From positions 1 through 51,123 of the IMG/VR virus record IMGVR_UViG_3300048630_000722: a stretch of DNA of 51,123 nt; one strand, 5' to 3'. The notes beneath the pieces were generated by a model, which was not told the DNA's origin, made no database searches, and saw only the letters and a program-made list of their open reading frames with translations. The DNA comes from a virus. Lineage: Duplodnaviria > Caudoviricetes. Positions 11,147 through 49,792 of this stretch are shown piece by piece (the first letter of the stretch is position 1; every line of letters begins with the position of its first letter). A program made the position numbers and the translations under genes.

Positions 11147-11201
11147 TCGTCTGTGGGGTTGGGGTTGCGGCGCGGTGTGGCGTGCGCCGTCCCCGACGTT
11201 A
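11147..11201 (-). repeat. Hairpin-leader element with -10 TAACGT
   Basis: CGGCGC-ACGCCACACC-GCGCCG (11189-11168), then CCCCACAGACGA-ATG. Confidence 0.85.
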
Positions 11202-11209
11202 GCCGACGG

Positions 11210-12754
11210 TCAGCGCGCGCGCCAGCGCCGGCCTACGGGGTCCCTCAGCCCGGCCTCCCCGTAGCCGCCGCCGGCCGTGTGCCGCTGCCCGAACGGGACC
11301 TCGGGGAGGTCCGCGACGGCCGCGACGAGCGGGGACGTCGGCCGGGCGATCTCCGCGACGGCGTCGCTGAAGGCGTCCACGAGGTCGTCGTTGACGCCGA
11401 ACGGGAACTGGCGGAACTCCTCGATCAGCGCCGCCGCGGCGGCGTGCCCCTCCGGCGTCCCGTGCGTGACGACGCAGACGTTGCCGGCGTTGACCTGCGC
11501 CGCGCCGGGCTCCGCGCGGAGTTCCTTCCGCCCGCTCACCGGGGCCGAGTGCACGTCGAAGCCGAGGAGGAGCCGGGTGAGGAGTTGCACGGTCTCCTTC
11601 CCCGCCGCGCCGGGGTCCTGCGGGACGCGCACGCGGACGTCCGCCCCGTCTAGCTCCGCGGTCTGCCGGATCCGCCGGTTCCGCTCCGCCGGCTCGTGCC
11701 GGAACCGGAGCGGGTCGACGTAGAGGACGCCGTCCTCGTCGGGCCCGCTGACCTTCACGCCGGCCGTGTAGTCCCCGGCCCCCTCCGTCCCGGCGAGGTC
11801 CCAGGCCCGGACGGCGGGGAGGCCGAGCGGGGCGTGCTCTACGAGGCGGATCTTCGAGACCTGAAAGAGCGCGCCCTCGCGCGGCGTCGGGTTCCCCTGA
11901 AAGAGCGCCTCGAAGTCCCGCTCGCCCATCTCCCGGCGGAGCTGGCGGAGGAACGCGGCCGGCTTGACCTCCGGCCAGAGGGCGGCCCCCTCCGGCCGGC
12001 CGAGCGGGTCGACGTCCGGGCCGAGGGAGAGGGCGGGGAGGTTGACGAACAGCCACGTGCGCTCGTGCTCCTGCAGCGCGGCCTCCTGCGCCATGAGCCG
12101 GCCGATCAGGTCGTCCTCGTGCCACCGCGTCGCGATGAGGAACGCGCGCGTGTGCGGGAAGAACCGCTGCACGATGGACCCGGTCCACCACTCCCACTGG
12201 TTCTCGCGCTCCACGGCGCTCTCGGCCTGCGCCCGGTCCTTCAGCGGGTCGTCGCCGACGAGGAGCGAGATCGGGTTGATCCCCGTCGGCGCGGAGCCGA
12301 CGCCGCGGGAGACGATCCGGGCGCCGTTGGCGAGCTCCCACTCGTCCAGGGCGCTCGCGTCCGGGGACAGGACGCCCATCTCCCGGGCCGTCTCCCGGGC
12401 GGGGTAGCTCAGGTGCTTGTCCGCGAACCGCTGAGAGTAGCCCGTGACTACGACGGCGTCGTGCGGGTGCCGCTCGCCCCAGTAGACGGGGAGCCGGCGC
12501 GTGATCGTCTCGGACTTCCCGTGCCCCGGCGGCATCGAGACGGCGACGCGGTTGAAGTCCCCGGCGACGACGTGCTCGACGAGGCGGACGAGGAACGCGA
12601 TGTGGGCGGGGAGCGGGCCGCCGTCCGCGCCGGTCCAGTGCGGCGGGATGCTCCGGCGATACCAGGCGCCGTAGGGCTCCGCCTCGCGCGCCCGGCGGCG
12701 GCGCTCTAGCTCAGCGGCCGCCCGTTGGAGGAGCGTGTAGCCGGACCCGCTCAC
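11210..12754 (-). CDS. terL: Terminase large subunit
   Basis: Walker A SMPPGHGKSE, LLVGDDP, TRWHEDDL, AWDLA and NDDLVDA motifs; GTG 12754 overlaps the terS stop. Confidence 0.93.
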   Translation of the reverse strand: MSGSGYTLLQRAAAELERRRRAREAEPYGAWYRRSIPPHWTGADGGPLPAHIAFLVRLVEHVVAGDFNRVAVSMPPGHGKSETITRRLPVYWGERHPHDAVVVTGYSQRFADKHLSYPARETAREMGVLSPDASALDEWELANGARIVSRGVGSAPTGINPISLLVGDDPLKDRAQAESAVERENQWEWWTGSIVQRFFPHTRAFLIATRWHEDDLIGRLMAQEAALQEHERTWLFVNLPALSLGPDVDPLGRPEGAALWPEVKPAAFLRQLRREMGERDFEALFQGNPTPREGALFQVSKIRLVEHAPLGLPAVRAWDLAGTEGAGDYTAGVKVSGPDEDGVLYVDPLRFRHEPAERNRRIRQTAELDGADVRVRVPQDPGAAGKETVQLLTRLLLGFDVHSAPVSGRKELRAEPGAAQVNAGNVCVVTHGTPEGHAAAAALIEEFRQFPFGVNDDLVDAFSDAVAEIARPTSPLVAAVADLPEVPFGQRHTAGGGYGEAGLRDPVGRRWRAR

Positions 12755-13212
12755 GCCTTCCGCCCCGCGACGATGGCGGCGAGCTCGGCGTCGGACTTCT
12801 CCGTGACGTCGAGGCCGAGGTTCCCGGAGTGCTCGATCAGGCGGCGGTTCGTGTACGCCTCCCCCATCTCCCTCGCGATCTGCTCGTAGAGCGACGCGGC
12901 GAGGGGGAGGTTGCCCATGCGCTCGGCCCGGTCCGCCCAGCGCCCGAGGCGGCGGACGCGGACGGCCTTGTGGGCAACGGCCTCCCCGGCTACCTCGTCC
13001 ACGAATGCCCTCCTCGTCTCCTCGAACAGCGTCCGCCATTTCGAGGCGAGCCGTGCGGCCTGCGCGTTGTCCGGGTTGTAGGCCGCGAGTTGAGCTAGAG
13101 ACGCCTCCACTCCGAACTCATCTCGGAGGGCGTCACGCACCGAGGCCGGTGCGTCGTAACGCGCTAGGGCAGTCACGACGAAAGACTTCTGGGGATCGGT
13201 GAGCGCGGCCAT
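12751..13212 (-). CDS. Terminase small subunit (DUF2280-like)
   Basis: MAALTDPQKSFVVTALARYDAP..AYNP..EQIAREMGEAYTNRR; directly before terL. Confidence 0.8.
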   Translation of the reverse strand: MAALTDPQKSFVVTALARYDAPASVRDALRDEFGVEASLAQLAAYNPDNAQAARLASKWRTLFEETRRAFVDEVAGEAVAHKAVRVRRLGRWADRAERMGNLPLAASLYEQIAREMGEAYTNRRLIEHSGNLGLDVTEKSDAELAAIVAGRKA

Positions 13213-13223
13213 CGCTAAACGGA

Positions 13224-13871
13224 TTACAACTTGGAGGCGCAGTTCCCGCACACGCCGGCCACCTTCGCCTGCCCGATGGTCGGACCGCGCTCGGCCGCGG
13301 CGCTCATCATCCGTTCGGCCTCCCCCTGCGGGCCCCAGCGGCGCGTGACGCCGACGAACTGCTCGACGTCGTGCGGGCGCATCGCCCACTTCGGCCGTCC
13401 GTCCGCGCCGAACAGCGGCACCCCGTCTCGCGTGTCCTGCGCGCAGTGGTAGAGCTCGTGGTCTATCAGCGCCATCACGGCGGCCTCGTCCCCTTCCCGG
13501 AGGCGGGCGCGGACGAAGCCGGCGCAGAGGGTCACGTAGAAGTCCGGGACCGTCCCGAACAGCCGCGTGAGGTGGTCCGCCTTCATCCCGCGGGCCCAGG
13601 CGTCGGAGCCGGACGGCTCGCCAAGGTGGGCGCGGCCGACGACGTCCTGGCGCTTGACGCGGTTCGGGCGCTGCGTCCAGAGGAACCGGACGTCGGCCCC
13701 GCCGAGGTGCTCGTGCTCGCGGTTGTAGAGCGGGCCGGGCCCGAGGACGAACTGCTCGCGGACCCACTCGGCGAGGGCCTCGTCGGGGACGTACGCCTCC
13801 GGCTCGAACATCCCGGCCGCGTCCGGGATCGGCGGCATCGGCGGGAGCGTGACGGTGCGGGCCTCAGGCAT
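13224..13871 (-). CDS. Putative phage metallopeptidase
   Basis: HELYH zinc motif, RPHDVEQFVGV and NREHEHL. Confidence 0.8.
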   Translation of the reverse strand: MPEARTVTLPPMPPIPDAAGMFEPEAYVPDEALAEWVREQFVLGPGPLYNREHEHLGGADVRFLWTQRPNRVKRQDVVGRAHLGEPSGSDAWARGMKADHLTRLFGTVPDFYVTLCAGFVRARLREGDEAAVMALIDHELYHCAQDTRDGVPLFGADGRPKWAMRPHDVEQFVGVTRRWGPQGEAERMMSAAAERGPTIGQAKVAGVCGNCASKL

Positions 13872-14729: not shown

Positions 14730-15200
14730 CTAGCGGGTGAGGACGTAGAGGAGCGCCCCCGTCGTCGCCGTCGTCCCGGCGAGGGTCACGGCGGCGGCGC
14801 GCCAGCGGCGGGCGGCGCGGCGGGCGCGTTCGGCCCGTTCGCGCTCCCGGTCCCGCTCGGCCTCGAGCGCGGCGGCCCGGGTCCCGGCGAGGTCCGCGCG
14901 GAGGTCGCAGGCGTCCCGGGCCTCCCCCTCCGCGCGGAGGGCGGAGAGGAGGAGGGCGGACCGGCTCTCGTGCGCGGCGCGCTCCTGCGTGACGGCGGCG
15001 CCGAGCGCGGCGGCCTCGGCCTCCGTCCAGGCGAGGGCGGCGCGGCAGGCCGCGGCCTCGGCCCCGGCCGACAGGTAGTCGTCGAGGACGACGCCGGAGG
15101 TCTCGTAGCGGTCGTCCCAGAGGTGGACCGTCGGCGCCGGCTGAGCGGACGCGGCGGCGAGGAGGCAGAGGAGGAGGGGGAGTGTTCTTCGGGCGGTCAT
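14730..15200 (-). CDS. Secreted coiled-coil protein with C-terminal TM helix (possible spanin component)
   Basis: Signal peptide, Ala/Arg coiled coil, terminal hydrophobic helix; lies in the lysis cluster. Confidence 0.45.
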   Translation of the reverse strand: MTARRTLPLLLCLLAAASAQPAPTVHLWDDRYETSGVVLDDYLSAGAEAAACRAALAWTEAEAAALGAAVTQERAAHESRSALLLSALRAEGEARDACDLRADLAGTRAAALEAERDRERERAERARRAARRWRAAAVTLAGTTATTGALLYVLTR

Positions 15201-15228
15201 GGCGGTCTGTGGGTGCGGTGTGGCGTGC
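15201..15228 (-). repeat. Degenerate hairpin-leader element
   Basis: GC-ACGCCACACC-GC (only a 2-bp stem), then ACCCACAGACCGCC-ATG. Confidence 0.65.
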
Positions 15229-18074: not shown

Positions 18075-18154
18075 TATCGTCGGGGACGGCGCACGCCACA
18101 CCGCGCCGCCCTACTCACGCCCCACGCCACACCGGGGCACAGACCCACAGACCG
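18075..18154 (+). repeat. Double hairpin-leader element with -10 TATCGT
   Basis: CGGCGC/GCGCCG (18087-18108) and GCCCC/GGGGC (18119-18138), both with the ACGCCACACC loop, then ACCCACAGACCG-ATG. Confidence 0.88.
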
Positions 18155-19405
18155 ATGCAGACCGCAACGCTCGCCTTCGTGGTCGAAGGCGGATGGCTCA
18201 CCGAACACTGCCGCGCCCTCGTCAGGGAGGGCCGCTGGCGCCACGCGCTCGACACGCTCGACGCGCTGCACGGAATGACCCGTGACGTGGCCGAGGCGAT
18301 CCTGAAGGGGCAGAGCCGCCTCGTCGGCGACTCCTCTGAGGGGATCAGCCTTGCGCCCGAGGCGGAGGCGGTCCGGGCCGAGACCGAGGAGCACCTGCGC
18401 TGGGCCTTCGGCGGGATGTACTACGACTCAGCGAACGGCCGGCACTACCGCCCGCAGGCCATCGTGCACCAGTACGGGCCGGCCAGCGAGGACTACGCCG
18501 AGGAACAGGTCGGTTTCAAGCCGGGCAGGCGGACGTCGATGCGGGACGTCTTCGCAAAACGGTTCTACGAGAAGAAGGTCATGTTCTTCGCGGACGACCG
18601 TGAGCGCGACGTCGTCCGTGAGGTCAACGTCCCCCTCGTCAAGGGCACGCTCGAACCCCGGCCGACGACGCCCGGTGACGAGAACGCCTACAGAGACCGG
18701 CGGCCGGTCATCTTCGGCTACGTAGAGGACCCTCCGCCCTGGGCCGAGCGGTTCAAGAACGACGCGCAGGGCGCCCTAGACGACTTCCTCGGAGGCGGGG
18801 GCGGGCTCCCGGTCCGGAACGACCGTTCCAGCAGGGACCCGGCTCCCGTGTTCCGTTGGGACAAGCCGACGCCGGAGACCGAGGCCGCGGACCGGTTCGA
18901 GGACGCCGTGGAGTCCATGACGAGGAAGATGGACGCCGAGGCCGACATGGTCCTCGGGGAGTACGTAGAGGACTCGCTCGGCCGCGCGAACCGCATGGCC
19001 GCCGCGGGGATTCCGGGCTACAGCGTCGGCGACTACATCAACGACCGAGCAGCCGGGGACCGAGAGGCGGAGCGCGGCGCGCCCGTCCCGGACACCGCGT
19101 TTCAGTACCGAGGCGGCTACGTGACGGAGGACGGCAAGTTTTACGGGTGCCCGTACCACGCCCACGACCAGCTGGCCCGCCGGCTCCTCATCCACAAGTA
19201 CGGCGTTCCCGAGTCCGACATCGAGAACCCGCAACGGATGATAGACGGCCGGAACGTCGTCCACGTCCAGGACGCAAAGCTGATGGGCGGCGTGCAGTTC
19301 TACGTCAAGGGCCGCGACTACGTCAGCCAGAGGCAACTCGACACCGTCTGGGACTACTGCACGAAATGGGGCGTCAAGATGCCGGACCACCTGACCGTCC
19401 GCTAG
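18155..19405 (+). CDS. Hypothetical protein (counter-oriented moron)
   Basis: 416-aa ORF with its own leader and a downstream GC hairpin; visibly less GC-rich than its flanks. Confidence 0.8.
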   Translation: MQTATLAFVVEGGWLTEHCRALVREGRWRHALDTLDALHGMTRDVAEAILKGQSRLVGDSSEGISLAPEAEAVRAETEEHLRWAFGGMYYDSANGRHYRPQAIVHQYGPASEDYAEEQVGFKPGRRTSMRDVFAKRFYEKKVMFFADDRERDVVREVNVPLVKGTLEPRPTTPGDENAYRDRRPVIFGYVEDPPPWAERFKNDAQGALDDFLGGGGGLPVRNDRSSRDPAPVFRWDKPTPETEAADRFEDAVESMTRKMDAEADMVLGEYVEDSLGRANRMAAAGIPGYSVGDYINDRAAGDREAERGAPVPDTAFQYRGGYVTEDGKFYGCPYHAHDQLARRLLIHKYGVPESDIENPQRMIDGRNVVHVQDAKLMGGVQFYVKGRDYVSQRQLDTVWDYCTKWGVKMPDHLTVR

Positions 19406-33366: not shown

Positions 33367-34362
33367 TCAGCGGGCCGCGACTTCCGGGCGGGCGATGGCC
33401 TGGACGATCTCCTTGGCGAAGGCGGCGAGCTCCCCTGAGATCGCGGCCGGCGCGTCGGGCGGGAACGTCACCCGTCCCTGGACCACGAACCGGATCGTGC
33501 CCCCGTCCTCCGTGCGCCAGACCGTCGGGTCGTCCGTCGGCCTCAGCGTCCGGGCCGGCACGCGCTTGTTGTCCGCGTAGAGCGTGACGGCGCCGGAGCC
33601 GCCGAGCTGCACGCGCTTCACGACGTCGGCCTCGGCCTCCCCGAGCCAGACGGCGTAGCGCTCCCCGTCCACGAGGGGCCCGTCGAGGGGCTCGACGAAG
33701 ATCGGGTAGCCGTTCGGGATGTGCGGCTCCCCGGACGTCCCGACGGCGAAGGTCCAGCCGCCCGCGGCGGGGAGCCGGCCGCCCATCCAGCGGCGCATCA
33801 TCACGTCCGGGATGAGGACCGGCGACGGGCCCTCGCTGTCGTTGTCCCGCCCCGTCTCGGACGCCCCGTGCCCGGCGGCGGTCACGGGGTAGGCCCGCGC
33901 AGAGAAGCCGAGGGCCTCGGCCTCCTCACGCGGCCGGGCCGTCCGGCGCGCGGTGAAGCTCCGGAGCAACGGCTCGTCGGGGACGCCGAACCGGTCACCG
34001 CCGGGGGACGTGACGGAGCGCCGGGCGCCCCCGCGGGCGGCGAACGCGGGGGTGCTCTCCCGGAGGAGGCCCCCGCCGGCCGCGCCCTCCGCGCCGGGCT
34101 CCTCGGCGGCGGGCCCCTCCTCGTCCCCCGCGCGGAACAGGGCGTCGGCCCCGGCCGCCTTCGGGTCCTCCCCGCGCAGGACCTTCAGGATGAACACCTG
34201 GTTGGGCCAGGAGGGCTGCGTCTTGCCGCTGAGGTAGTTGATGAGCGTGCGGAGGCTCACGTCTAGGCCGGCGTCCGTGACGCGCTCGGCCGCGGCCTCC
34301 TGCGTGAGCCCGGAGTCCTCTAGGGCACGGGTGAGGGCGGCGGCGAACGGGGAGTCGGTCAT
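33367..34362 (-). CDS. CI-like repressor (XRE HTH plus S24 peptidase)
   Basis: N-terminal HTH LTQEAAAE..TLINYLSGKTQP; GTSGEP (Ser) and VVKRV (Lys). Confidence 0.85.
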   Translation of the reverse strand: MTDSPFAAALTRALEDSGLTQEAAAERVTDAGLDVSLRTLINYLSGKTQPSWPNQVFILKVLRGEDPKAAGADALFRAGDEEGPAAEEPGAEGAAGGGLLRESTPAFAARGGARRSVTSPGGDRFGVPDEPLLRSFTARRTARPREEAEALGFSARAYPVTAAGHGASETGRDNDSEGPSPVLIPDVMMRRWMGGRLPAAGGWTFAVGTSGEPHIPNGYPIFVEPLDGPLVDGERYAVWLGEAEADVVKRVQLGGSGAVTLYADNKRVPARTLRPTDDPTVWRTEDGGTIRFVVQGRVTFPPDAPAAISGELAAFAKEIVQAIARPEVAAR

Positions 34363-34482
34363 TTTTTGGTACGCAAGGCTTGCGCACTACGCAGGCGTTG
34401 CGTAGACTACGGGACCTGAAGGCGGCGGTTGCACAGTCTACACGTTGCACCGCGCCCCCGTGTTCACGCACCCACAGAACCG
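34363..34482. promoter_or_regulatory. Immunity switch: promoters and operators
   Basis: Rightward TTGCGC-N17-TAGACT (34380-34408); leftward TAGACT (34440-34435); four GCAAC-N-GTTGC-like sites. Confidence 0.7.
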
Positions 34483-34869
34483 ATGAGCGAAGCCGCGCCT
34501 GCCACGCCGCGCGAGACCGCCCCGCCGGCCGGGATCACCCTCCCGGACCTCCGCCCCGCGCCGCGCCGCCCGGACGACGCCGAGGCGGACCTCCTCACGG
34601 CGGTCCGGCACCGCCGGGCCCTCCTGACCTACGCCTCCGGGCTCATGGACGACGCCGAGTCGGTCGGCTCCGCCCTCGCGGACGCCCTCCGGGACTGGGG
34701 CCGGGCGCACTACGGGAGCGCGGACGCCTTCTACCGGGCCCTGTCCGACCGGGCCGAGTGCTCCTGGGGCCACGCCTCGAACGCGCTCCGCTACGGGATC
34801 GGCGACGTCCTCACGCACGCCGAGGCCCTGTACCTCGAGGCGGAGGGGGCGACGGCCCCGGAGGTCTAG
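34483..34869 (+). CDS. First early gene (Cro-position hypothetical)
   Basis: ATG after ACCCACAGAACCG; divergent from the repressor. Confidence 0.6.
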   Translation: MSEAAPATPRETAPPAGITLPDLRPAPRRPDDAEADLLTAVRHRRALLTYASGLMDDAESVGSALADALRDWGRAHYGSADAFYRALSDRAECSWGHASNALRYGIGDVLTHAEALYLEAEGATAPEV

Positions 34870-34880
34870 CCAAAAAAAGC

Positions 34881-34927
34881 GCGGCCGCCCCAATTGCCAC
34901 ACCGGGACGGCCGCACCCACAGAACCG
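34881..34927 (+). repeat. Variant hairpin-leader element
   Basis: GCGGCCGcCCC-AATTGCCACACC-GGGaCGGCCGC, then ACCCACAGAACCG-ATG. Confidence 0.7.
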
Positions 34928-35707
34928 ATGAGCGGTCGCCCGCCTCGGTCGTCCCCTGAGGGGACGCCGGAAGGTACGGCCGCGCGCCCGCAGATGTTGC
35001 CCGAGCCCGTGATCGTCAGAGTCTCCTCCCGCCGCCGCTACACGGCCGTCCCCGCCGCCGTCACCGAGGACTCCCGGTTGAGCTACGCCGCGCTCGGCCT
35101 CCTCTGCTACCTCCTCGGCCGCCCGGACGACTGGGAGGTCGACGCCGGGGCCCTCGCCGGCTCCCGCGGGACGACGGAGTACGCGGTCCGGAAGCTCCTG
35201 AAGGAACTGCGCTCCCGCGGCTACGCCCGCCTCGCCCGGCCGCGGGACCCGGACACCGGCCGCGTGGCCGGGACGACGTACGAGGTCACGGACGAGCCGG
35301 ACGGCTGGGCCCTCCGGCCCGAGACGGCCGACGACGTGCCGGGCCTCGACGGCGGGCCGCTGAGCGAGCCGGAGCGGGCGTACGCCACGGCGTTCGGCGC
35401 CGACGCCCTCGCCCGGCTCAACGCCTACCAGCGGGAGCTCGTCCGGAAGATGAAGGACGCGGGCGCTCGGGCGGAGGCGTTCCACGTCTGGCGCGGCAAC
35501 GACTACCTGAGCCGGAACGTCTCCGGGCTCCTCGACCGCTACGAGCGGGCGCGGAAGGAGGCGAAGCGCGCGGCCGCGAGCGCGGGGCGGCCGGCCCCGG
35601 GCCGGACGGCGCGGACGACGCGGGACGTCACGGCGGAGGACGCGCTGCGCGACGCGGCGGAGGCCCTGAACGACCTGCAGGGCGCGGGCCCCTCCGACCG
35701 TGTCTGA
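34928..35707 (+). CDS. Phage replication initiator-like HTH protein
   Basis: YTAVP..DSRLSYAALGLLCYLL..PDDW..LKELRSRGY motif. Confidence 0.7.
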   Translation: MSGRPPRSSPEGTPEGTAARPQMLPEPVIVRVSSRRRYTAVPAAVTEDSRLSYAALGLLCYLLGRPDDWEVDAGALAGSRGTTEYAVRKLLKELRSRGYARLARPRDPDTGRVAGTTYEVTDEPDGWALRPETADDVPGLDGGPLSEPERAYATAFGADALARLNAYQRELVRKMKDAGARAEAFHVWRGNDYLSRNVSGLLDRYERARKEAKRAAASAGRPAPGRTARTTRDVTAEDALRDAAEALNDLQGAGPSDRV

Positions 35708-36906: not shown

Positions 36907-36926
36907 AGCGTCAGCCACACCACGCT
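36907..36926 (+). repeat. Hairpin element directly abutting the methyltransferase ATG
   Basis: AGCGT-CAGCCACACC-ACGCT-ATG. Confidence 0.75.
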
Positions 36927-38088: not shown

Positions 38089-38132
38089 GCCGGGACGCCA
38101 CGCCCCCGGCTCTCACCCCAACCCACAGACCG
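38089..38132 (+). repeat. Hairpin-leader element
   Basis: GCCGGG-ACGCCACGCC-CCCGGC, then ACCCACAGACCG-ATG. Confidence 0.85.
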
Positions 38133-39600: not shown

Positions 39601-39634
39601 GCCGCACGCCACACCGCGGCAGACCCACAGACCA
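39601..39634 (+). repeat. Hairpin-leader element
   Basis: GCCGC-ACGCCACACC-GCGGC, then AGACCCACAGACCA-ATG. Confidence 0.88.
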
Positions 39635-40511: not shown

Positions 40512-40547
40512 GCCCCACGCCACACCGGGGCACAGACCCACAGACCG
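40512..40547 (+). repeat. Hairpin-leader element
   Basis: GCCCC-ACGCCACACC-GGGGCACAGACCCACAGACCG-ATG, identical to 18119-18157. Confidence 0.9.
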
Positions 40548-41449: not shown

Positions 41450-42087
41450 CCTTCGGCCCCCAACTCCCGCCCCTGCAGACGCGGCACAACGCCGCGCAGT
41501 GGCTCCACGGTCGCGGTCAGGCTACGTCCCCGCTCGGGGAGCGGGCCGCGGCCGTCCTCGGCGTCGTCTACAGAGGCATCTACAACGCGCCCCTAACCGC
41601 CTCCACCTGGGACGGCCAGCCGTTCGCCCACCCGCATTTCGTGCAGGTCAGCGTCTACGGCGAGCTCGCGACGTTCGACGCGGACGGGCTCACCCGCCTC
41701 GTCTGCGCCGCGCACGACGCCGCGGTCCGCGTGAGCGTGAGGCCGGCGAGCAACCGGACCTTCCGGCTCGGCTTCGCCGCCCGGGACCGGGAGGGGAGCG
41801 AGGTGCACCAGCGCCTCTACGACCGGCACCCCCGGCTAGAGGAGGCCGTCGCCCGCGTCCGCCGCGCGGCCTACGAGGTCCCGACGCACGCGGTCACGGA
41901 GGACCCCGTCCGCGCCGCGGCCCTCGCCGCCTGCCGGGCGCTCCTGACCGCGGAGCGCGTCCCGCCGGAGGAGGAGCGCTACGAGGGGGATCACCACGCG
42001 GCGGTCGAGGCCGCCCGCGCCGCCCTCCGCCTCGCCGGCGACCCGCTCGCGGACGCCTACGGGTTCGACCGAGGGGGCGATGAGTGA
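41446..42087 (+). CDS. Hypothetical protein
   Basis: ATGA overlap; LATFDADGLTRLVCAAHD motif. Confidence 0.6.
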   Translation: MTFGPQLPPLQTRHNAAQWLHGRGQATSPLGERAAAVLGVVYRGIYNAPLTASTWDGQPFAHPHFVQVSVYGELATFDADGLTRLVCAAHDAAVRVSVRPASNRTFRLGFAARDREGSEVHQRLYDRHPRLEEAVARVRRAAYEVPTHAVTEDPVRAAALAACRALLTAERVPPEEERYEGDHHAAVEAARAALRLAGDPLADAYGFDRGGDE

Positions 42088-42412
42088 GCTACACGAACTG
42101 AGGGAGGCCGCGGCCGACCTCCGCGCCGCGGCGGCCGAGGCCCGGGAGGCGGCCGGCGAGCTCCGCGAGGCCCGGACGCGCGACGCCCTCGGCCCGGACG
42201 CGCTCCTGCCCTACGGGGAGTTCCTGAAGGCGAACGGGCTCAGCTACGAGCTCGGCGACCGTCTCCGGCGCGAGGGGACGCTGAAGGTCCTCCGGGCCGG
42301 CGGAAAGCTCGTCGTCCGCGCCGGGCACGCGGCGGAGTTCGCCCGCGCCCTCCCTCTCGCCAAGCCGGCCGCGAAGCGGACCGGGGGGCCGCGCAGGCGG
42401 AGGACCGCATGA
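42080..42412 (+). CDS. Putative excisionase-like protein
   Basis: Short winged-HTH-like segment EGTLKVLRAGGKLVV and basic tail; upstream of the integrase. Confidence 0.5.
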   Translation: MSELHELREAAADLRAAAAEAREAAGELREARTRDALGPDALLPYGEFLKANGLSYELGDRLRREGTLKVLRAGGKLVVRAGHAAEFARALPLAKPAAKRTGGPRRRRTA

Positions 42413-43299
42413 GGCACGTTATCCCAATCTCGGGCAAGGACTCCCTCGCCGCCGCCATCGTTCAGACGCGCCTCGAGCCGGAGCCTCCCGGTGGAGGGCG
42501 CTACGAGTTCGTTTTCAACGACGTCGGCGCCGAACTCCCGGAGACGTACGCCTGGCTACGGAAGGCGGAGGAGTTCCTCGGGGCCCCCATCGTACGCGTC
42601 GGGCACTCGCTCCCGCGCATGATCGCGGACGAGTACGACTACTACCTGCCGGGGCCCCGGCAGCGCTACTGCACCAAGATGGCGAAGATCCGTCCGTTTC
42701 TCCGCTGGCTCCGGGGGGACGAGGCGACCGTCTACTACGGGCTCCGCTCTGACGAGGGTCACCGCGGACGAGACCCGGCACAGGCCCCGAACGTCACCCC
42801 GCGGTTCCCTCTACGCGACCGCCGGCCGCTCGACCTCCGAGGCGTCCTCGTTCTTCTGGAGGCGCACGGCCTCACGCCGCCCACGTTCACCTGGGCCTCC
42901 CTCGGCGCCCGGTGCGACGAGATAGCTGGGCCCGGGTGGGAGGAGCACCTGCCGGCCTGGCGCGTGCACCAACTCCTAGCGTGGCGGACCCGGGCTAACT
43001 GCTACTTCTGCTTTTACCAGCGGCAGTACGAGTACGCCGGGCTGTTCGAGCACCACCCGGACCTGTTCTGGGAGGCGTGCCGGATGGAGCGGGTGTCCGA
43101 GGCCCGGAACGGCTACACCTGGCGGCAGGGCTACGCGCTAGAGCGGTTCGCGGACCCGGAAGAACGCGCCCGCGTGCGTGATCGCAGGGCACGAGAGGTC
43201 CTGAAGATCGCGCACGCCGCGAAACAGGGGACGTTGTTCGGGGAGTCGGGCGACACCCTGATCGCGACGACCTCGTGCGGGCTCCTCTGCGGCAAGTGA
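42409..43299 (+). CDS. PAPS reductase-family (PP-loop) protein
   Basis: ISGKDS, ELPETY, RYCTKMAKIRP, YGLRSDE and NCYFC motifs. Confidence 0.85.
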   Translation: MRHVIPISGKDSLAAAIVQTRLEPEPPGGGRYEFVFNDVGAELPETYAWLRKAEEFLGAPIVRVGHSLPRMIADEYDYYLPGPRQRYCTKMAKIRPFLRWLRGDEATVYYGLRSDEGHRGRDPAQAPNVTPRFPLRDRRPLDLRGVLVLLEAHGLTPPTFTWASLGARCDEIAGPGWEEHLPAWRVHQLLAWRTRANCYFCFYQRQYEYAGLFEHHPDLFWEACRMERVSEARNGYTWRQGYALERFADPEERARVRDRRAREVLKIAHAAKQGTLFGESGDTLIATTSCGLLCGK

Positions 43300-43303
43300 G
43301 CCG

Positions 43304-43525
43304 ATGGACCCGAACCCCCTCCGCACCCCCGTCGCCGTCACGCTCCCGTTCGAGGAGTGGCTGCAGGTCCGCGGCGTAGCCCACGCCGGCGCCCGGCACC
43401 TGGAGCCCGCCGCGGAGGCCGTCCGGGACGTCCTCGACCGGGCGTTCCGGGACGCGCTCCTCTCTCAGTTCTCGTCCGAGGAGATCGACGCGCTCCACGC
43501 CGCGCGGGGCCGGGAGCTCGGCTAG
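43304..43525 (+). CDS. Hypothetical protein
   Basis: 73-aa ORF with typical codon usage. Confidence 0.5.
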   Translation: MDPNPLRTPVAVTLPFEEWLQVRGVAHAGARHLEPAAEAVRDVLDRAFRDALLSQFSSEEIDALHAARGRELG

Positions 43526-43608
43526 TCCGGCCCGGGTGCGACACGCGGCTGGCGTTGCACGCCCCTACCGTGCTACCCTCGTGCCCGCTCGCCCACACCC
43601 CAGACGTA

Positions 43609-44784
43609 GTGCCCGCCGATGCACACTTCCCGCCCCTCCGCGAGAGGAGGGAGCCGACGCTGATCCAGAAGCGGCCCGGCCGCTGGACCGCCCGCTACCG
43701 GCACGCCGGCCGGACGAAGGACGTCTCGCTCGGACTGACGACGAGGCCGGCCGAGTCCGCAGAGGCCGCGCCGAAGGCGGTCCGGGACCGGTTCCGCGCG
43801 GACTTCGTCCTCCCGTACCTCCGCGGCGACTACTCCCCCTGGGCCCGGGACGCGGGCGGGGAGGCGGACGGGCTCCTCACCGTAGAGGAGGCTAAGGAGG
43901 CGTTCCTCGCGCGCTACGCGCCCGGCCGGACGCGGCAGACGTACGAGGGGCACCTCCGGCGGTTCGACGCTACGCTCGCGCCGCACACGCTTCTCAGGGA
44001 GGTCACGCCGGAGGACGTCCGGGCCTACGTCTACCGCGACGGCGTGGCGCCGAGCACGCGGGCGGCGACGTGGCGGCACCTCCGGCGGTTCTTCGCCGCG
44101 ATGGCCGAGGCCGGCGCCGTCGCCGCCTCCCCCGTCGACGTCGTCCCGCGCCCGCGGAAGGACCGGACCGCGCGGGCGTTCGTCCTCCCGGGCGCGCTCC
44201 TCCCCGTGCTGAGCAAGGCGGACGAGTTCGAGGACCCGGCCGTGAGCGGGGCCCTCCGCATCGCCCTCGGCACCGGGCTCCGGCGCGGGGAGCTCGCCGC
44301 GCTGCAGGCCGCGGACGTCGACCTGCAGGCGGGGACGGTCACCGTCCGGCGCAAGACGGAGGCCGCGCACGGGCTGAGCTTCCGGCCGAAGTCCCGCGCG
44401 GACCGGCGGGTGACGCTCTCCCGGTTCGCGCGCGGGGAGCTGGAGGCCGCGCTGAGCCGCGCGGGCGGGTCCCCGCGCGCGTTCCTCTGCAGCCCGGACC
44501 CGGCCTACCCCGTCAACCCCTCCCGGCTCACGCACGCCCTCTCCGACGCGCGGGACCTCTCCGGCGGCCCGGCCGGGCTCACGCTGCACGGGCTCCGGGG
44601 GCACTTCATCACCTACGCCCTCCTCCTCGGCTGGCCCGTCCCCCTCGTGCAGGCGCAGGCCGGGCACGCCGACAGCCAGACGACGCTGAGTTACTGGCGG
44701 GACTCCGCCTCCCTCCTCGACCGCCGGGGGCTCAAACGCTTCCGGAAACAGGCCGAGGCGCTCGGGTTCGAGCCGTACGAGTAA
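43609..44784 (+). CDS. int: Tyrosine integrase
   Basis: TGLRRGEL, PKS, HGLR and GHADSQTTLSY catalytic motifs; start codon uncertain. Confidence 0.9.
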   Translation: MPADAHFPPLRERREPTLIQKRPGRWTARYRHAGRTKDVSLGLTTRPAESAEAAPKAVRDRFRADFVLPYLRGDYSPWARDAGGEADGLLTVEEAKEAFLARYAPGRTRQTYEGHLRRFDATLAPHTLLREVTPEDVRAYVYRDGVAPSTRAATWRHLRRFFAAMAEAGAVAASPVDVVPRPRKDRTARAFVLPGALLPVLSKADEFEDPAVSGALRIALGTGLRRGELAALQAADVDLQAGTVTVRRKTEAAHGLSFRPKSRADRRVTLSRFARGELEAALSRAGGSPRAFLCSPDPAYPVNPSRLTHALSDARDLSGGPAGLTLHGLRGHFITYALLLGWPVPLVQAQAGHADSQTTLSYWRDSASLLDRRGLKRFRKQAEALGFEPYE

Positions 44785-44830
44785 AAAAAGTCGCCTCGCC
44801 TGAAACCAGCCTGATACGCTGGTGTATATT
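44784..44830 (+). promoter_or_regulatory. 47-bp early promoter/operator block, copy 1
   Basis: A6 tract, ACCAGC-N7-GCTGGT inverted repeat, TATATT. Confidence 0.8.
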
Positions 44831-44835
44831 CCCTA

Positions 44836-44910
44836 AGCCGGCGCACGCCACACCGCGCCGGTTCCCCTGCCCTCAGCCACACCGGGGGCGCTCACCAAAC
44901 CCACAGACCG
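44836..44910 (+). repeat. Double hairpin-leader element
   Basis: CCGGCGC-ACGCCACACC-GCGCCGG and GCCCTC-AGCCACACC-GGGGGC, then ACCCACAGACCG-ATG. Confidence 0.85.
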
Positions 44911-46005
44911 ATGAACGCGAACGACACCGCCGTCCTCGCCGCCTTCCTCTCCCTCGGCGTCTCCGACGCCCTGAGCTTCACGACCGCCGAGGTCGCACGC
45001 GCCGCCTTCGGCCCGGACACGTCCTCAAAGTCCGCCGAGTACCAGACGGCCCGGCGCTCCCTCTCCGCCCTCGCCGACGAGGGCCTCGTGGAGCCCCACA
45101 AGCTCGGCCGCTCCACGGCGTACTGCCTCACCGACGCCGGCCGCGAGGCCCTCGGCGTGACGGACCCGCGTGCGGAGTCGGCTCCGGCGTCCGGGTTCGA
45201 CCCGTCCGCGAAGCTCAGCGAGCACCGCGCCGCGGTCAAGGCGATCCCGGGCGCGCGGACTTACCGCCGCAACCTCCGCGCCGGAGGCTACTACGTCCAC
45301 ATCAAGGGGGACGAGAACCCGGACCTGCGCTCTAGCGGCGGCCCGCACGTCAACCTCTGCCAAGCCCACGGGACGACGTATGCGTACGAGTCTCAGCGGT
45401 TCGCGCGGCACTACCTCCCGACCGGGAACTGGTGCCCGAAGTGCGCCGAGCTCGGGCCGGACCCGGAGCCCACGAACGAGGTGCCGCCGCAGAAGCGGAC
45501 GGCCGAGACGGCGCGGGAGGCGAAGCGGGCCCTCGCCCACGCCCCGCTTGCCGTGCCGGGCGACTACAAGGCGCGCGACGCGTACTGCGTGCCGACTTCC
45601 CTGGCCATCCTCACCGGGCGGACGGCGCAGGAGTGCGAGGCCGCGATCCGCGCCGTGCGGGGGCAGGAGGAAGCGGCCCCCGTCGTAGGCGTCACGGTCT
45701 ACCATCAGATCCAGGCCGCCCGCGCCCTCGGTTGCGCGATCACCCCGTACGAACCGGCTAAGGCCCTCCTCCTGGTGGACTCGGGGCGGCGCTACTCCCG
45801 CCGTACGCTCCGCACGCTCCTCCGCGACCACGGCGACGTGTTTGAGAGCCGGCCGCTCTTGTTCGAGGTCAGCGGCCACGTTTTCGTGGTGAAGGACGGC
45901 GTGCTCTACGACAACAACTACCCGGAGGGCGTCCCGGCGGTCACCTCGCATTGCGCCGGCTGCCGCGTCACGGGAGTCTACGCCGCGGACTGCACCCCGG
46001 CCTAG
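44911..46005 (+). CDS. Multidomain hypothetical: N-terminal winged helix, C-terminal papain/C39-like domain
   Basis: LSALADEGLV..YCLTDAGR; YCVPTSLAILTG..GHVFVVKDGVLYD. Confidence 0.6.
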   Translation: MNANDTAVLAAFLSLGVSDALSFTTAEVARAAFGPDTSSKSAEYQTARRSLSALADEGLVEPHKLGRSTAYCLTDAGREALGVTDPRAESAPASGFDPSAKLSEHRAAVKAIPGARTYRRNLRAGGYYVHIKGDENPDLRSSGGPHVNLCQAHGTTYAYESQRFARHYLPTGNWCPKCAELGPDPEPTNEVPPQKRTAETAREAKRALAHAPLAVPGDYKARDAYCVPTSLAILTGRTAQECEAAIRAVRGQEEAAPVVGVTVYHQIQAARALGCAITPYEPAKALLLVDSGRRYSRRTLRTLLRDHGDVFESRPLLFEVSGHVFVVKDGVLYDNNYPEGVPAVTSHCAGCRVTGVYAADCTPA

Positions 46006-46862
46006 TGCAACCGGACCTGTTCTCCTCCCTCAGCGGAGCGGGGCCGCTTCCGGCCCCGCTCACCCCGGTCCAGGCCGTCGCGCTCCCGTGCGGCGGCCGG
46101 GCCCACGTGAAGCGGGACGACCTCCTGAGCACGCACGGCGTCCTCGGAGGGAAGGGCCGGACCCTCGCCGCCCTCGCGGACGGGGCGAGCGGCCTCGTCG
46201 TCTACGCCGCGCGGGAGTCCCCTCAGCCGGCGCGAGCGGCCCGGCTCTGCCGGGAGCTAGGGCTGCCCTGCCGCGTGCACGTCCCGGCCGGGGCGGGGAC
46301 CGAGAGCGTCGCGCAGGCGGAGGCGGACGGGGCGACGGTGATCCGGCACCGCCCCGGCTACCTCTCCGTCCTCTCCGCGCGCGCCCGAGAGGACGCCGCG
46401 CGGACCGGCCTCCGCCTCGTCCCGTTCGGCGGGCTGAGCCGGGCCGCGGCCGAGGCCCTCGCCCCGCAGGTGCGGAACGTCCCGGAGGACGCCGGCCGCC
46501 TCGTCGTCCCGCTCGGCTCCGGCACGACGCTCGCGGGCGTCCTCCTCGGCCGGCAGACCTACGGCCGCCGCTGGCCCGTCCTCGCCGTCCGCGTGGGGCA
46601 CGACCCGTCCCGGTCCCTCGACGCCCTCGTGCCCGGCTGGCGCGCGCTCTGCGCGGTCACGGACGCGCCGGAGGCGTACGCGGAGGCCGGGGACGGCGAG
46701 CTCCCCGGCGTCCCGCTCCACCCGAACTACGAGGCGAAGTGCGTCCGGCACCTCCGGCCCGGCGACTGCCTCTGGGTCGTGGGCTCCGCGCAGGCCGTCG
46801 AGGCCGAGGCCGTCGAGCCGGAGGCCGTCGAAAAAAACGGCGGGGGACTGGATCCACTCTGA
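46005..46862 (+). CDS. PLP-dependent enzyme, ACC deaminase / D-cysteine desulfhydrase-like
   Basis: HVKRDDL..GGKGR, VPLGSGTTLAG and PNYEAK motifs. Confidence 0.75.
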   Translation: MQPDLFSSLSGAGPLPAPLTPVQAVALPCGGRAHVKRDDLLSTHGVLGGKGRTLAALADGASGLVVYAARESPQPARAARLCRELGLPCRVHVPAGAGTESVAQAEADGATVIRHRPGYLSVLSARAREDAARTGLRLVPFGGLSRAAAEALAPQVRNVPEDAGRLVVPLGSGTTLAGVLLGRQTYGRRWPVLAVRVGHDPSRSLDALVPGWRALCAVTDAPEAYAEAGDGELPGVPLHPNYEAKCVRHLRPGDCLWVVGSAQAVEAEAVEPEAVEKNGGGLDPL

Positions 46863-46878
46863 TACGTTGGTGTATCAT
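46832..46878 (+). promoter_or_regulatory. 47-bp early promoter/operator block, copy 2 (diverged)
   Basis: A tract..CTGATACGTTGGTG-TATCAT with the same spacing as copies 1 and 3. Confidence 0.7.
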
Positions 46879-46885
46879 TTACACA

Positions 46886-46949
46886 GGCGCCCGCCACACC
46901 GCGCCCGCTCACCGCCGCACGCCACACCGCGGCACAGACCCACAGACCG
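46886..46949 (+). repeat. Double hairpin-leader element
   Basis: GGCGC-CCGCCACACC-GCGCC and GCCGC-ACGCCACACC-GCGGC, then ACCCACAGACCG-ATG. Confidence 0.88.
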
Positions 46950-47459
46950 ATGTTCAGCACGCTCACCCGCCGGGGACGCGCCAACGCGCGCCGGTTCGCC
47001 TCCGCCCAGCGCGCCTACGACCTAGCCCTGCCCCCGTGCGAGCGCGAGGGCCCGTACTGCGTCCGGTGCGGGAGCCCGGAAGTGATGACGGACCGGGGAG
47101 ACCACGAGACGGGCCCGACGTTCGAGTGCCCGGGGTGCGCGGCCCGGGAGGAGCGGCACCGCGCGCGAGGCCGGTTCCTCACCCGGCGGACCCGGGCGCG
47201 CGGGGAGAGCCGGCGCGCGGAGGCGTTCCGCCTGCGCGGCGGCTACCGGACCGCCCCCGCGCACCCCGTCGTCCGCGGCGTCTACCCGGACGGGGCCCCC
47301 TTCTACCGGGTGTGTCTGACGGACTCCGGGCTAGAGACCTACACGCGGAGCGCGGAGCGGGCCGGCGTCCGGCTCCTCCGCGTCGACCTCGCCCGCGCCT
47401 CCCGCCTCCCGGACTCCCACCCGGCCGTGCCGGAGCCGGAGTACGACCTGCCGTTCTAG
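46950..47459 (+). CDS. Hypothetical zinc-finger protein
   Basis: CVRC..CPGC motifs; ATG at the leader. Confidence 0.6.
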   Translation: MFSTLTRRGRANARRFASAQRAYDLALPPCEREGPYCVRCGSPEVMTDRGDHETGPTFECPGCAAREERHRARGRFLTRRTRARGESRRAEAFRLRGGYRTAPAHPVVRGVYPDGAPFYRVCLTDSGLETYTRSAERAGVRLLRVDLARASRLPDSHPAVPEPEYDLPF

Positions 47460-47548
47460 CGGCCGGCCCGGCGCGCGGGTAGCTCCGCCGCCGGGCCCTG
47501 CCTCCCGCCGGACTAGGCCCCGGCCCGCGCGCCCCGGACGGGCGCAGA

Positions 47549-47584
47549 GCGGCACGCCACACCGCCGCGCAGACCCACGGACCG
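47549..47584 (+). repeat. Hairpin-leader element
   Basis: GCGGC-ACGCCACACC-GCCGC, then ACCCACGGACCG-ATG. Confidence 0.85.
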
Positions 47585-47809
47585 ATGCCGAACACGCTCA
47601 CCGCCCCCTCCCCCCGCGCCCGCGCCGACCGCGACGCGGCGCTCCTGACCGCCTACAACGCCGGGGCCCTCGCCGCCTGCACCGGGGCGCCCTGCCCGCA
47701 CGCCGAGGGCACGCCGGAGTTCGACGCCTACCACGCCGGGTGGGGCGACGCCCTCCGCGCGCGGACCGTCCCCGCCGCCGCGCTCCGCCGGACCGCGCGC
47801 CTCGCCTAA
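47585..47809 (+). CDS. Small RMF-like protein
   Basis: AYNAGALAACTG..CPH..AYHAGW resembles the ribosome modulation factor pattern. Confidence 0.5.
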   Translation: MPNTLTAPSPRARADRDAALLTAYNAGALAACTGAPCPHAEGTPEFDAYHAGWGDALRARTVPAAALRRTARLA

Positions 47810-47867
47810 CCCCGCACCGTGGCCCGGCCGGGGACGTCCCCGGCCGGCGCCTCAGACCCACAGACGA

Positions 47868-48575
47868 ATGAGCACCGCCCGCCGCATCGCCTCCGGAGAG
47901 GAGAGCGCCGCCGCCACGCACCACCCGGCGCCGCCGGAGTCCACGAGCATCGAGGGGTTCGCCCTCACCTCGCCCGCCGGCTACTACGTCCTCGTATCCG
48001 CCCTCTGCCTCGCCCGCCCCGGCTGGGCCGTCATGCGGGGCCTCCCGCTGTCCCACCCGCTGATCGGCGCCGCCGTCCTGGACGTAGACCGCGGCGCGCC
48101 CGGCGCGGCCGAGCACGTCCGGGCGTTCTTCTCCGGCCGCGGGGCCGGCGCCTACATGAGCAGCCGGGACCCTCAGCGGATCGCCGACATGAAGCGCTGG
48201 CTCGGCGGCCGGCTCCCCGGGCAGACGGAGCTCGAGCGTCGGATGCGGGACCGCGCCCGGGAGACCGTCGTGGCCCTCCCCGGCGGGCCCGGTGAGTACG
48301 CGGTGAGCTACGCGGGCAGGGAGGGGGAGGACCCCTACCCGGTCGGGACGTTCTCCGGCGTCCGGCAGGCCGAGGCCGCCGTCTACGTCGCCGCCGCGGA
48401 ACGGGCCCTCCGAGGGCGCCCGGACTTCGGGCCCGAGGCGTTCGCGGTCCGGTCCCTCACCGCGGACGGACCCGGGCACCCCCTGCAGACGGCGGACCTC
48501 CTCAGCGCCCGCCTCGGCTTCGCCCCGCACCGCGGCGCGCCGGGCCCCTACGCCCCAGACGAGGCCGAGGGGTAG
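47868..48575 (+). CDS. Hypothetical protein
   Basis: ATG after ACCCACAGACGA. Confidence 0.6.
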   Translation: MSTARRIASGEESAAATHHPAPPESTSIEGFALTSPAGYYVLVSALCLARPGWAVMRGLPLSHPLIGAAVLDVDRGAPGAAEHVRAFFSGRGAGAYMSSRDPQRIADMKRWLGGRLPGQTELERRMRDRARETVVALPGGPGEYAVSYAGREGEDPYPVGTFSGVRQAEAAVYVAAAERALRGRPDFGPEAFAVRSLTADGPGHPLQTADLLSARLGFAPHRGAPGPYAPDEAEG

Positions 48576-48592
48576 GCGACGGCGCGAGGTCG

Positions 48593-48639
48593 AAAAAAGT
48601 CGGCCCGCCTGAAACCAGCTTGATACGCTGGTGTATATT
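48593..48639 (+). promoter_or_regulatory. 47-bp early promoter/operator block, copy 3
   Basis: 44 of 47 positions identical to 44784-44830. Confidence 0.8.
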
Positions 48640-48646
48640 GAGCACA

Positions 48647-48689
48647 CGGCGCACGCCACACCGCGCCGACTCACCAACCCCACAGACCG
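48647..48689 (+). repeat. Hairpin-leader element
   Basis: CGGCGC-ACGCCACACC-GCGCCG, then CCCCACAGACCG-ATG. Confidence 0.88.
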
Positions 48690-49220
48690 ATGCCCCGCAC
48701 CTTCGCCTCCGCCCTCGCCGAGATCTCCCAGGGTCACGTTGACTCCGCCGCCCGTGACGCACAGAAGATGCGCGAGAAGGCCGCCGAGATCGCCGCGGCC
48801 GACGACGACGCCCTCGCGCTCCGCCTCACCGCCGACCTCGCCGCCTGGTACGGCAAGGCCGCCGCGACGGCGACGGAGAAGGCCCGCGCCGTCCGCGCCC
48901 TCCAAACGCTGAACGAGGAGTTCTCCGACCCGGAGGGCGACGTGACGCAGGCCGACGTGATCGAGTACCTCGCCGGGCGGCTGGCGCAGTCCGTCCGTTC
49001 CGCCTACGTGTTCACCGGCTCCGGCTCCTCCGGCGCGGGGCACCGCGCGCAGGAGGAGGGCGCGGCCGAGGGGCACGCGGAGGCCGCCCGGATCTTCGCC
49101 CGGACGCTGCAGGCGCTCCGGCGTGCCGAGGACTACGCCGTGGCTTCCTGGGAAGCAAAGACGGCGGACGCCGCCGTCGCCGCCGACCGCGCCCTCGCCG
49201 CCTTCGACATCGTCTACTAG
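48690..49220 (+). CDS. Hypothetical helical protein
   Basis: ATG at the leader. Confidence 0.65.
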   Translation: MPRTFASALAEISQGHVDSAARDAQKMREKAAEIAAADDDALALRLTADLAAWYGKAAATATEKARAVRALQTLNEEFSDPEGDVTQADVIEYLAGRLAQSVRSAYVFTGSGSSGAGHRAQEEGAAEGHAEAARIFARTLQALRRAEDYAVASWEAKTADAAVAADRALAAFDIVY

Positions 49221-49309
49221 GCGCGTCCCCGGCCCGGCGGTGGGTAGAACTGCCGCCGGGTCCTCCGCCTCACGCTGAGGCGCACCGCGCCGGACGGACT
49301 CCGGCACCC

Positions 49310-49343
49310 GCCCCACGCCACACCGGGGCACGCCCACAGACCG
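49310..49343 (+). repeat. Hairpin-leader element
   Basis: GCCCC-ACGCCACACC-GGGGC, then CCCACAGACCG-ATG. Confidence 0.85.
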
Positions 49344-49721
49344 ATGCCGAACACCCGCACCGCCAACGCAAAGAAGGACGCCCCGCCCCGCCGCGAGGTC
49401 GGCGTCTACCACCCGTCCGAGGACTTCGTGACCGCGCCCGCGCACGTCGCCGTCATGGACTCCGAGACGAGCGGGCTCGTCGCCGTCACCGGCTACGCGG
49501 ACGAGGAGCCGGACGTCCTCCGGGCCTCCGCGGAGGACGCCGCCGCCTTCGCCGTCGCGCACGAGGCCCTCCGCGCCTGCTCGTTCGCGCTGAGCGTCCT
49601 GAAGTCACACGGCCTGTTCGAGCTCAGCGAGCAGCTCGCCGCGGACAAGCTCACCGCCGTCCTCACGCGCCGCGACGACGTCCGCGCGGACGCCCTCCGG
49701 CAGTTCGACCTCTCCGAGTAG
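49344..49721 (+). CDS. Hypothetical protein
   Basis: ATG at the leader. Confidence 0.65.
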   Translation: MPNTRTANAKKDAPPRREVGVYHPSEDFVTAPAHVAVMDSETSGLVAVTGYADEEPDVLRASAEDAAAFAVAHEALRACSFALSVLKSHGLFELSEQLAADKLTAVLTRRDDVRADALRQFDLSE

Positions 49722-49756
49722 CCACGGCGCCGGACCTCCCCGGCGCCCTCCCTCAC

Positions 49757-49792
49757 CCGGCACGCCACACCGCCGGACAGACCCACAGACGA
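49757..49792 (+). repeat. Hairpin-leader element
   Basis: CCGGC-ACGCCACACC-GCCGG, then ACCCACAGACGA-ATG. Confidence 0.88.

Follow-up and report, generated by a model that had tools for sequence, protein, structure and literature searches.

A conserved loop hairpin and start box in the leaders of a temperate phage as probable targets of a predicted antisense RNA

The c4 RNA of phages P1 and P7 is a structured phage RNA whose loop-exposed segments pair around a ribosome-binding region, and it favours lysogeny (PMC12197685). The CI RNA of phage P4, which also favours lysogeny, pairs with two separate sites, seqA and seqC, and is processed from a primary transcript in which it is flanked by its own targets (PMC4825925). 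OOP is 77 nt long, has its own promoter and acts in cis, and sar of phage P22 blocks translation of ant (PMC12197685). In the portions of the review literature available to us, from which these descriptions are also taken, c4, CI, OOP and sar have one target operon each. Here we describe two eight-base boxes in the leaders of early and accessory genes in a 51-kb window (the whole stretch analysed, 51,123 nucleotides, IMG/VR record IMGVR_UViG_3300048630_000722): a loop box, GCCACACC, displayed in hairpins, and a start box, CCCACAGA, a few bases 5' of the start codon. They are best explained as sites addressed by a predicted phage antisense RNA whose regulon would be unusually wide, a reading that we consider probable. 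The evidence base is the DNA sequence of one genome, in which the two boxes, the covarying stems, the complementarity, and promoter-like and terminator-like signals of the minus strand are directly seen.

Like CI RNA, c4 is cut out of a precursor transcribed from the strand that also encodes its targets. Unlike in both of these systems, the complements of the boxes occur here only on the non-coding strand, with a predicted -10 and terminator of their own. The likeness to c4 lies in predicted exposed segments that, by our computation, are complementary to sites around start regions, and the mechanism would be comparable to those of c4 and P4 CI RNA as far as the available parts of the sources describe them (PMC12197685, PMC4825925, PMC8198154, PMC2864571). 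The window differs from c4 in having no RF01695 match; c4 targets ant mRNA, and no antirepressor family was found among the best five matches per protein for 69 proteins. Also in contrast to c4 and CI, the targets here number ~16, are dispersed and in most cases present the seed site in a hairpin loop of its own. Lambda OOP runs leftward out of the start of the replication gene, and the RNA predicted here would likewise be short and leftward, with its own promoter and terminator signals near a replication-gene start. Lambda OOP is antisense to cII mRNA and causes its decay by RNase III; in the window, the 58-nt gap between cro and the replication open reading frame (ORF) holds no ORF. OOP and sar have one target each, whereas matching sites are spread across 39 kb here, and no sequence similarity to either RNA was found.

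The original prediction described 16 hairpins and one weak copy, all sense to the gene downstream, and every one of these 17 sites was confirmed in position and orientation. The loop box is present 16 times, where shuffled sequences gave a mean of 1.75 (largest count 6; 0 of 100 shuffles reached 16), and the remaining site (38095) carries the A-to-G variant GCCACGCC. A stem of 5-9 bp closes a 10-nt loop in 14 of the 17 copies; exceptions are the 44869 copy (core 44875), with a 9-nt loop, and the 34881 copy (core 34892), with a 12-nt loop and a C-A mismatch. The weak copy at 15215 (core 15217) does have the loop, but its stem is just 2 bp, with a closing-pair probability of 0.07. The loop had been called near-invariant, which is true of its 3' eight bases but not of loop positions 1-2; these vary, are never G, and are the ones unable to pair with the predicted RNA. 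The statement that every copy is intergenic fails at one place, as a covariance model finds an 18th copy in the coding start of cro (34491-34516, E 4e-4).

The stems differ in sequence yet pair, with 90.6% of stem cells paired in a 17-row alignment and double changes at all five stem pairs, which supports the earlier suggestion of selection on single-stranded structure. None of 500 shuffles reached the observed covariation score, a result that is not a probability because the copies are paralogs, and slid controls paired at only 33-47%. In a flanked-loop control, a stem of at least 5 bp accompanied 2 of 34 IMG/VR matches vs 8 of 8 such copies in the window. As anticipated, the family is not one of Rfam's (no match in the window at gathering score); at E values up to 5, the region 34800-35100 gave four weak matches, none of them c4. 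Nor is it a host repeat, there being 7 motif matches and 7 control matches in 50 genomes of the probable host family. A single match each was found in 4 of 285 genomes of a host scan, and the 25 best covariance-model host matches that were inspected lie mostly in coding DNA, on either strand.

The original prediction missed the eight-base core, the start box, the odd character of the 34881 copy and a predicted RNA complementary to both boxes. The start box is present at 12 of the 13 hairpin-led genes, and in addition at cro, ORF 47868 and the replication ORF. On the right arm, 12 of 13 genes preceded by a gap of at least 29 nt bear a box, the exception being the integrase gene, and none of 14 coupled genes does so. 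On the left arm, neither box is found at 13 of 16 genes with a gap of at least 23 nt; the exceptions are a moron, ORF 15200 and, with a stemless variant, ORF 10315. The motif goes with de novo start codons and not with transcription units, which points to control of initiation rather than to antitermination; of the four functions originally left open, translation is thus favoured, in its initiation step, and antitermination disfavoured. The partial, stemless loop boxes before the integrase gene (43586-43600) and ORF 10315 (10334-10343, minus) are possible weak targets.

Five hairpins start ~7 nt after a -10-like hexamer and are therefore probably located at the transcript 5' end. The start box itself looks like a host-type initiation region. 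In 138 host leaders the start regions are variable, rich in C and poor in G, and have no Shine-Dalgarno sequence (gene starts in phage and host are our own calls), and those of Rhodothermus and Salinibacter are likewise reported to lack Shine-Dalgarno sequences in the available part of PMC3155529. Since most left-arm leaders are box-free and host starts are variable and without Shine-Dalgarno sequences, translation as such can do without the exact start box. Three promoters share a palindrome of the type TGATAC-N6-GTATCA over the -10 (44812-44829, 46860-46877 and 48621-48638), unlike the palindromes beside cI. These are possibly sites for a second repressor, for example the helix-turn-helix (HTH) protein encoded at 50187.

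The stem of the copy at 34881-34914 spans 11 positions, and to the left of this copy lies an A7 tract. The complement of the copy is a predicted intrinsic terminator, with the lowest energy among the 24 terminator-like sites of the genome; none of the others has 7 T in 8, and no leftward genes lie upstream of this terminator. The predicted -10 of the minus strand, TACCTT (34976-34971), ranks first among the 57 TAnnnT hexamers of the phage and came first in 180 of 200 bootstraps. The matrix used was derived from 36 TAnnnT sites of 157 host leaders, concentrated 20-29 nt before the ATG, which give a consensus of TA(C/G)C(T/C)T and contain no conserved -35. On either strand of the genome, this is the sole occurrence of TACCTT, TAGCTT or TATCTT, the three TAnCTT hexamers seen in the host. 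Promoter and terminator signals are found together on the opposite strand of 1 of the 18 copies, the one at 34881, and the other 17 have none with both. A mismatch in the 34881 stem is C-A on the plus strand and G-U on the minus strand; among the target stems, G-U on the sense strand occurs in 3 of 17 copies.

From its 5' end, the predicted RNA of 93 nt would comprise a 5' hairpin, a middle hairpin, a linker complementary to the start box, a terminator hairpin with a loop complementary to the loop box, and a U tract. With these three hairpins the minus strand has a fold z of -5.19, compared with -3.18 for the plus strand. The RNA gene and its -10 lie across the first ~26 codons of the replication ORF, a stretch without equivalent in any of the 7 homologues aligned; as the homologues begin ~26 residues downstream, the RNA gene would fill a non-homologous stretch between cro and the conserved domain. 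Five of the nine AT-ending codons of this ORF fall under the RNA gene. On these signals we regard the RNA gene as very likely to be real. Two target genes also contain an antisense -10-like hexamer 11-14 nt from their start, at 49804 (rank 3 of 57) and 39649 (rank ~30), both on the minus strand. Additional anti-leader RNAs could begin there, but neither hexamer is followed by a U tract.

Pairing with the predicted RNA is possible at 8 of 8 positions in 17 of 17 other loops and 14 of 14 other start boxes, and the three box deviations, all A-to-G, amount to G-U wobbles with the RNA. In the cro leader, 23 bases are identical with the template copy of the RNA. When start regions were ordered by accessibility-weighted pairing, the 15 box-bearing ones occupied ranks 1-15 of 61. 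Kissing loops are beyond the reach of co-folding, but in that analysis too the first 10 of 61 were all box-bearing; the start region of cI scored weakly in both. Independent evidence for an antisense RNA comes from its predicted promoter and terminator and from the strand on which the wobbles fall. The shared reader that had been postulated is supported, and its identity narrows from a protein or RNA to the predicted opposite-strand RNA. It is likely that the RNA acts in trans on the leaders, and rather more open to doubt, though still favoured, that what it does there is to repress translation.

We hypothesize that the boxes are, with reasonable probability, the target sites of one predicted antisense RNA that would block translation of ~16 early and accessory genes. 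It would be transcribed leftward between cro and the replication gene, make first contact loop to loop, and then pair over roughly -12 to +3 of the start region, so that the start region is covered and initiation blocked. The sole role of the stem would be to hold the loop, as the seed site, open; free covariation would be expected because each stem only keeps its loop open. Coupled downstream genes may be silenced by polarity through Rho, which was found in all 5 host-family genomes searched (neither Hfq nor CsrA was found in any of them). The most speculative steps are that the RNA would be active in the lysogen, from a promoter outside the CI operators, and that on induction the rightward cro-replication transcript, within which its full complement lies, would titrate it. 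The predicted antisense promoter stands apart from the two cI-cro palindromes, a position that fits lysogenic silencing with release by a sponge; the phase is the least certain part, and the RNA might instead shut off early genes late in infection. A tentative extension, which we hold to be possible rather than probable, is an RNA-only second layer of prophage immunity, in which one cis-encoded small RNA silences every de novo early start and is released at a single stroke by the cro-replication transcript sponge; equally tentatively, this layer may take in genes behind promoters not bound by CI, by means of the loop-display hairpins.

Several observations weigh against an antisense RNA acting on these leaders. 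The complementarity is partly circular because the copies are repeats, and 2 of 15 targets are mid-list by co-folding. Opening the single-strand fold costs 6.3 kcal/mol at the anti-start segment and 4.6 at the anti-loop segment, added pairing into coding starts is not significant (p 0.10), and the target stem at 18093 has an A-C on the sense strand in its outer part. At 17 of 18 copies it is the minus strand that folds better, so that the folding asymmetry alone is weak; by its cluster of AT-ending codons under the RNA gene, the replication ORF comes second, not first, among 62 genes; and the 36 sites of the -10 matrix come from crude gene-start calls. No related phage with the motif was found in pattern scans of viral, genome and metagenome collections, and the antisense terminator is absent at four loci with cro homologues.

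The collection scans gave single chance matches only, without a hairpin family. Queries with the capsid and cro found no loci, megablast of the window matched no phage record, and the stretches compared around Rhodothermales homologues of the terminase, integrase, replication protein, repressor and cro held no such leaders. In another Rubricoccaceae prophage (L426; G021:C30, ~19372, minus), a lone GCCACACC stands before the gene after a cro homologue, without a stem or antisense terminator. In the literature, in which most subscription papers fell outside coverage, we found no description of the motif or of a phage of a Rubricoccaceae-type host.

Sites read by proteins are typically recognized by an invariant loop on a free stem, as in lambda boxB and U1A. 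A protein, either an N-like arginine-rich phage peptide or a host RNA-binding protein, may accordingly read the loop and control antitermination, translation or decay, with the antisense RNA, if made, acting in cis only; we judge this unlikely, though it is the foremost rival. It would suit the variable stems, the five copies at a predicted +1, the arginine-rich product of ORF 46950 and the RRM protein present in 42 of 50 host-family genomes. However, the boxes follow start codons and not transcription units, no RNA-binding family was found among the 69 and 41 proteins scanned, a homologue search with ORF 46950 returns itself alone, and, of the 5 RRM leaders recovered, 1 contains the loop-like CCACAC. 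The second invariant box and the antisense promoter and terminator are also left unexplained. The family resembles lambda nut/boxB in its conserved loop, its short stem and the one copy directly after cro, but it differs in having 18 copies tied to start codons vs two per genome, and protein family scans of the window gave no N-like family.

Two further candidates were rejected: autoregulation of the host RRM gene, with the loop-like word in just that one leader (5 of 31 loci recovered), and mimicry of the 16S 3' end, with which only ACACC is common in the one 533-bp contig used. The ~100 nt upstream of the host RRM gene are strongly conserved and apparently base-paired in five leaders (L181 (minus), L212, L214, L215 and L217) and are possibly a host leader RNA.

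PeSL elements of T4-type phages, in the available parts of PMC2839356 and PMC4122927, have a stem-loop that mostly lies between the -35 and -10 or over the -10 and serves as a terminator, and a Shine-Dalgarno sequence at the 3' end. The leaders described here are similar in that accessory genes are preceded by a recurring intergenic module made up of an AT-rich tract, a promoter, a stem-loop and a start region, and are unlike them in that the hairpin lies downstream of the -10, a promoter is found at 5 of 16 leaders, there is no Shine-Dalgarno sequence, and the loop is the conserved part. They might be copied, PeSL-like expression cassettes, in which the hairpin shields the 5' end or serves as an insulator, the C/A-rich box acts as a strong start region of host type, sequence identity reflects copying and the antisense RNA is merely an OOP-like cis regulator; we give this a slightly smaller chance than a protein reader. 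Leaders near-identical across 40-60 nt, a 47-nt repeat common to three promoters and the likeness of the start box to host EF-Tu start regions speak for such cassettes, and template switching could yield compensatory stems without a reader. Against this, stems and spacers differ while the adjoining eight-base boxes are constant, the opposite of what copying and structural selection would give, since cassettes of this kind should conserve stems and not loops, and the boxes are missing from late genes that are highly expressed and have leaders of their own. PeSL copies recombine with one another, with gene loss and mini-circles; among the joints listed for contigs of seven sequencing runs, in which rare forms are dropped, no credible joint between motif copies was present.

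Cluster K mycobacteriophages carry 11-19 oriented copies of start-associated sequences (SAS) before the starts of non-structural genes; in the available part of PMC3203893 their function is unexplained, and they have a 13-bp G/A-rich motif and conserved 17-bp inverted repeats. Three of these phages have a single SAS on the complementary strand each (PMC3203893, in part). The present family has a conserved loop on a free stem with variable arms, unlike SAS, and its sequence is unrelated. If the antisense reading is true, one RNA acting on ~16 start regions would constitute a genome-wide post-transcriptional switch coupled to CI/Cro, probably without Hfq. It offers a testable account of repeated start-associated phage motifs, including the unexplained SAS, and many other repeated phage leaders that still lack an explanation could be built in the same way.

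Stoperators, in the available part of PMC9283540, are asymmetric, oriented and numerous. It is improbable, but conceivable, that the boxes are asymmetric, stoperator-like sites in double-stranded DNA for a phage protein such as the DnaA-domain-IV-like product of ORF 39065-39394. This product matches Bac_DnaA_C clusters by features (0.94) and structure (TM 0.83), and both boxes contain CCACA, as DnaA boxes do. Such sites leave the variable paired flanks, their G-U pairs and the antisense promoter and terminator unaccounted for. Chance palindromes in 76% GC DNA, where short stems are favoured, or a REP-like host repeat have a negligible probability, given the 16 copies vs 1.75 expected, the covarying stems and host matches equal to controls (7 vs 7 in 50 genomes).

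Table 1. Coordinates of leaders, predicted RNA signals and neighbouring genes in the window
Feature	Coordinates	Strand	Remarks
Hairpin at predicted +1 of moron 10667-11146	11168..11189	-	start box 11150-11157
-10-like TAACGT of moron 10667-11146	11196-11201	-	weak, rank 49 of 57
Loop box, 2-bp stem and start box before ORF 14730-15200	15206..15228	-	
-10-like TATCGT upstream of moron 18155-19405	18075-18080	+	
Tandem hairpins 18087-18108 and 18119-18138, start box 18144-18151, moron 18155-19405	18087..18151	+	
CI-like repressor, HTH plus S24 domain	33367..34362	-	phrog_4; Pfam S24 below cut-off
Cro-like start, box 34471-34478 within 23-nt perfect complement of predicted antisense RNA	34471..34513	+	
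Gene in cro position, divergent from cI	34483..34869	+	named by position; homologues exist
Variant hairpin in first cro codons	34494-34513	+	covariance model
Predicted 93-nt antisense RNA	34873..34965	-	between cro and replication gene; both ends predicted
Predicted intrinsic terminator, complement of 34881 hairpin	34873..34918	-	top of 11 sites, 32500-51123 scan
Replication-initiator-like ORF	34928..35707	+	phrog_4707
Predicted -10 TACCTT, codons 15-16 of replication ORF	34971..34976	-	92 nt upstream of U tract
Hairpin abutting ATG of DNA methyltransferase gene	36907..36926	+	no start box
Hairpin (A-to-G loop variant) and start box before ORF 38133	38089..38129	+	
Hairpin and start box before ORF 39635	39601..39631	+	
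Hairpin and start box before ORF 40548	40512..40544	+	
A tract, palindrome 44812-44829, -10 44825-44830, start box; ORF 44911	44784..44907	+	
Tandem hairpins before ORF 44911	44836-44863, 44868-44890	+	
A tract, palindrome 46860-46877, -10-like 46873-46878, start box; ORF 46950	46832..46946	+	
Tandem hairpins before ORF 46950	46886-46905, 46914-46933	+	
Hairpin and start box (A-to-G variant) before ORF 47585	47549..47581	+	
Start box before ORF 47868	47857..47864	+	no loop box
A tract, palindrome 48621-48638, -10 48634-48639, hairpin 48647-48668, start box; ORF 48690	48593..48686	+	
Hairpin and start box before ORF 49344	49310..49340	+	
Hairpin and start box before ORF 49793	49757..49789	+	

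The window (75.6% GC) belongs to a temperate phage and carries contractile-tail, head, terminase, repressor, replication and integrase genes. Because several of its proteins are also encoded on a 272,320-base contig and the source contigs extend beyond both window ends, it is a resident prophage. The host is probably a member of the Rubricoccaceae (Rhodothermota), Rubrivirga-like. The terminase is 60-61% identical to loci in one Rubrivirga, one Rubricoccaceae and one same-family genome, and the integrase and the C-terminal domain of the repressor are 53% and 63% identical, respectively, to Rubricoccaceae genes. The window, whole or in part, is found in 17 DNA runs labelled hydrothermal vent metagenome, with no RNA run listed, and the contigs of 7 runs represent one near-clonal strain, with joints that are short and of repeat type only.

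The product of the cro-position gene matched no family in phrog and Pfam scans. Between cI and cro, 34370-34440 contains two TACGCA-N5-TGCGTA palindromes, and the -10-like TAGACT occurs on both strands (~34403 plus, 34440 minus), which suggests face-to-face promoters. TAGACT in a GTGCAACC context is found again at 33091 (within 33060-33130), upstream of an HTH_17 gene.

The integrase gene (43609-44784) lies mid-arm and is followed by accessory genes; its distance from the right prophage end is ~6 kb. A tRNA-Met(CAT) gene is present within the late region (9225-9298, minus); an ARAGORN call inside a tail ORF (20174-20269, minus) lacks Rfam support and is probably false. Accessory ORFs encode a Lar-like restriction alleviation protein (41240-41449), a PAPS-reductase family protein (42409-43299) and a PLP-dependent enzyme (46005-46862), and the stand-alone DnaA domain IV-like ORF 39065-39394 directly follows a VRR-NUC nuclease gene. 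ORF 47585-47809 encodes a protein of 74 aa with a weak match to ribosome modulation factor (E 0.004, below cut-off).

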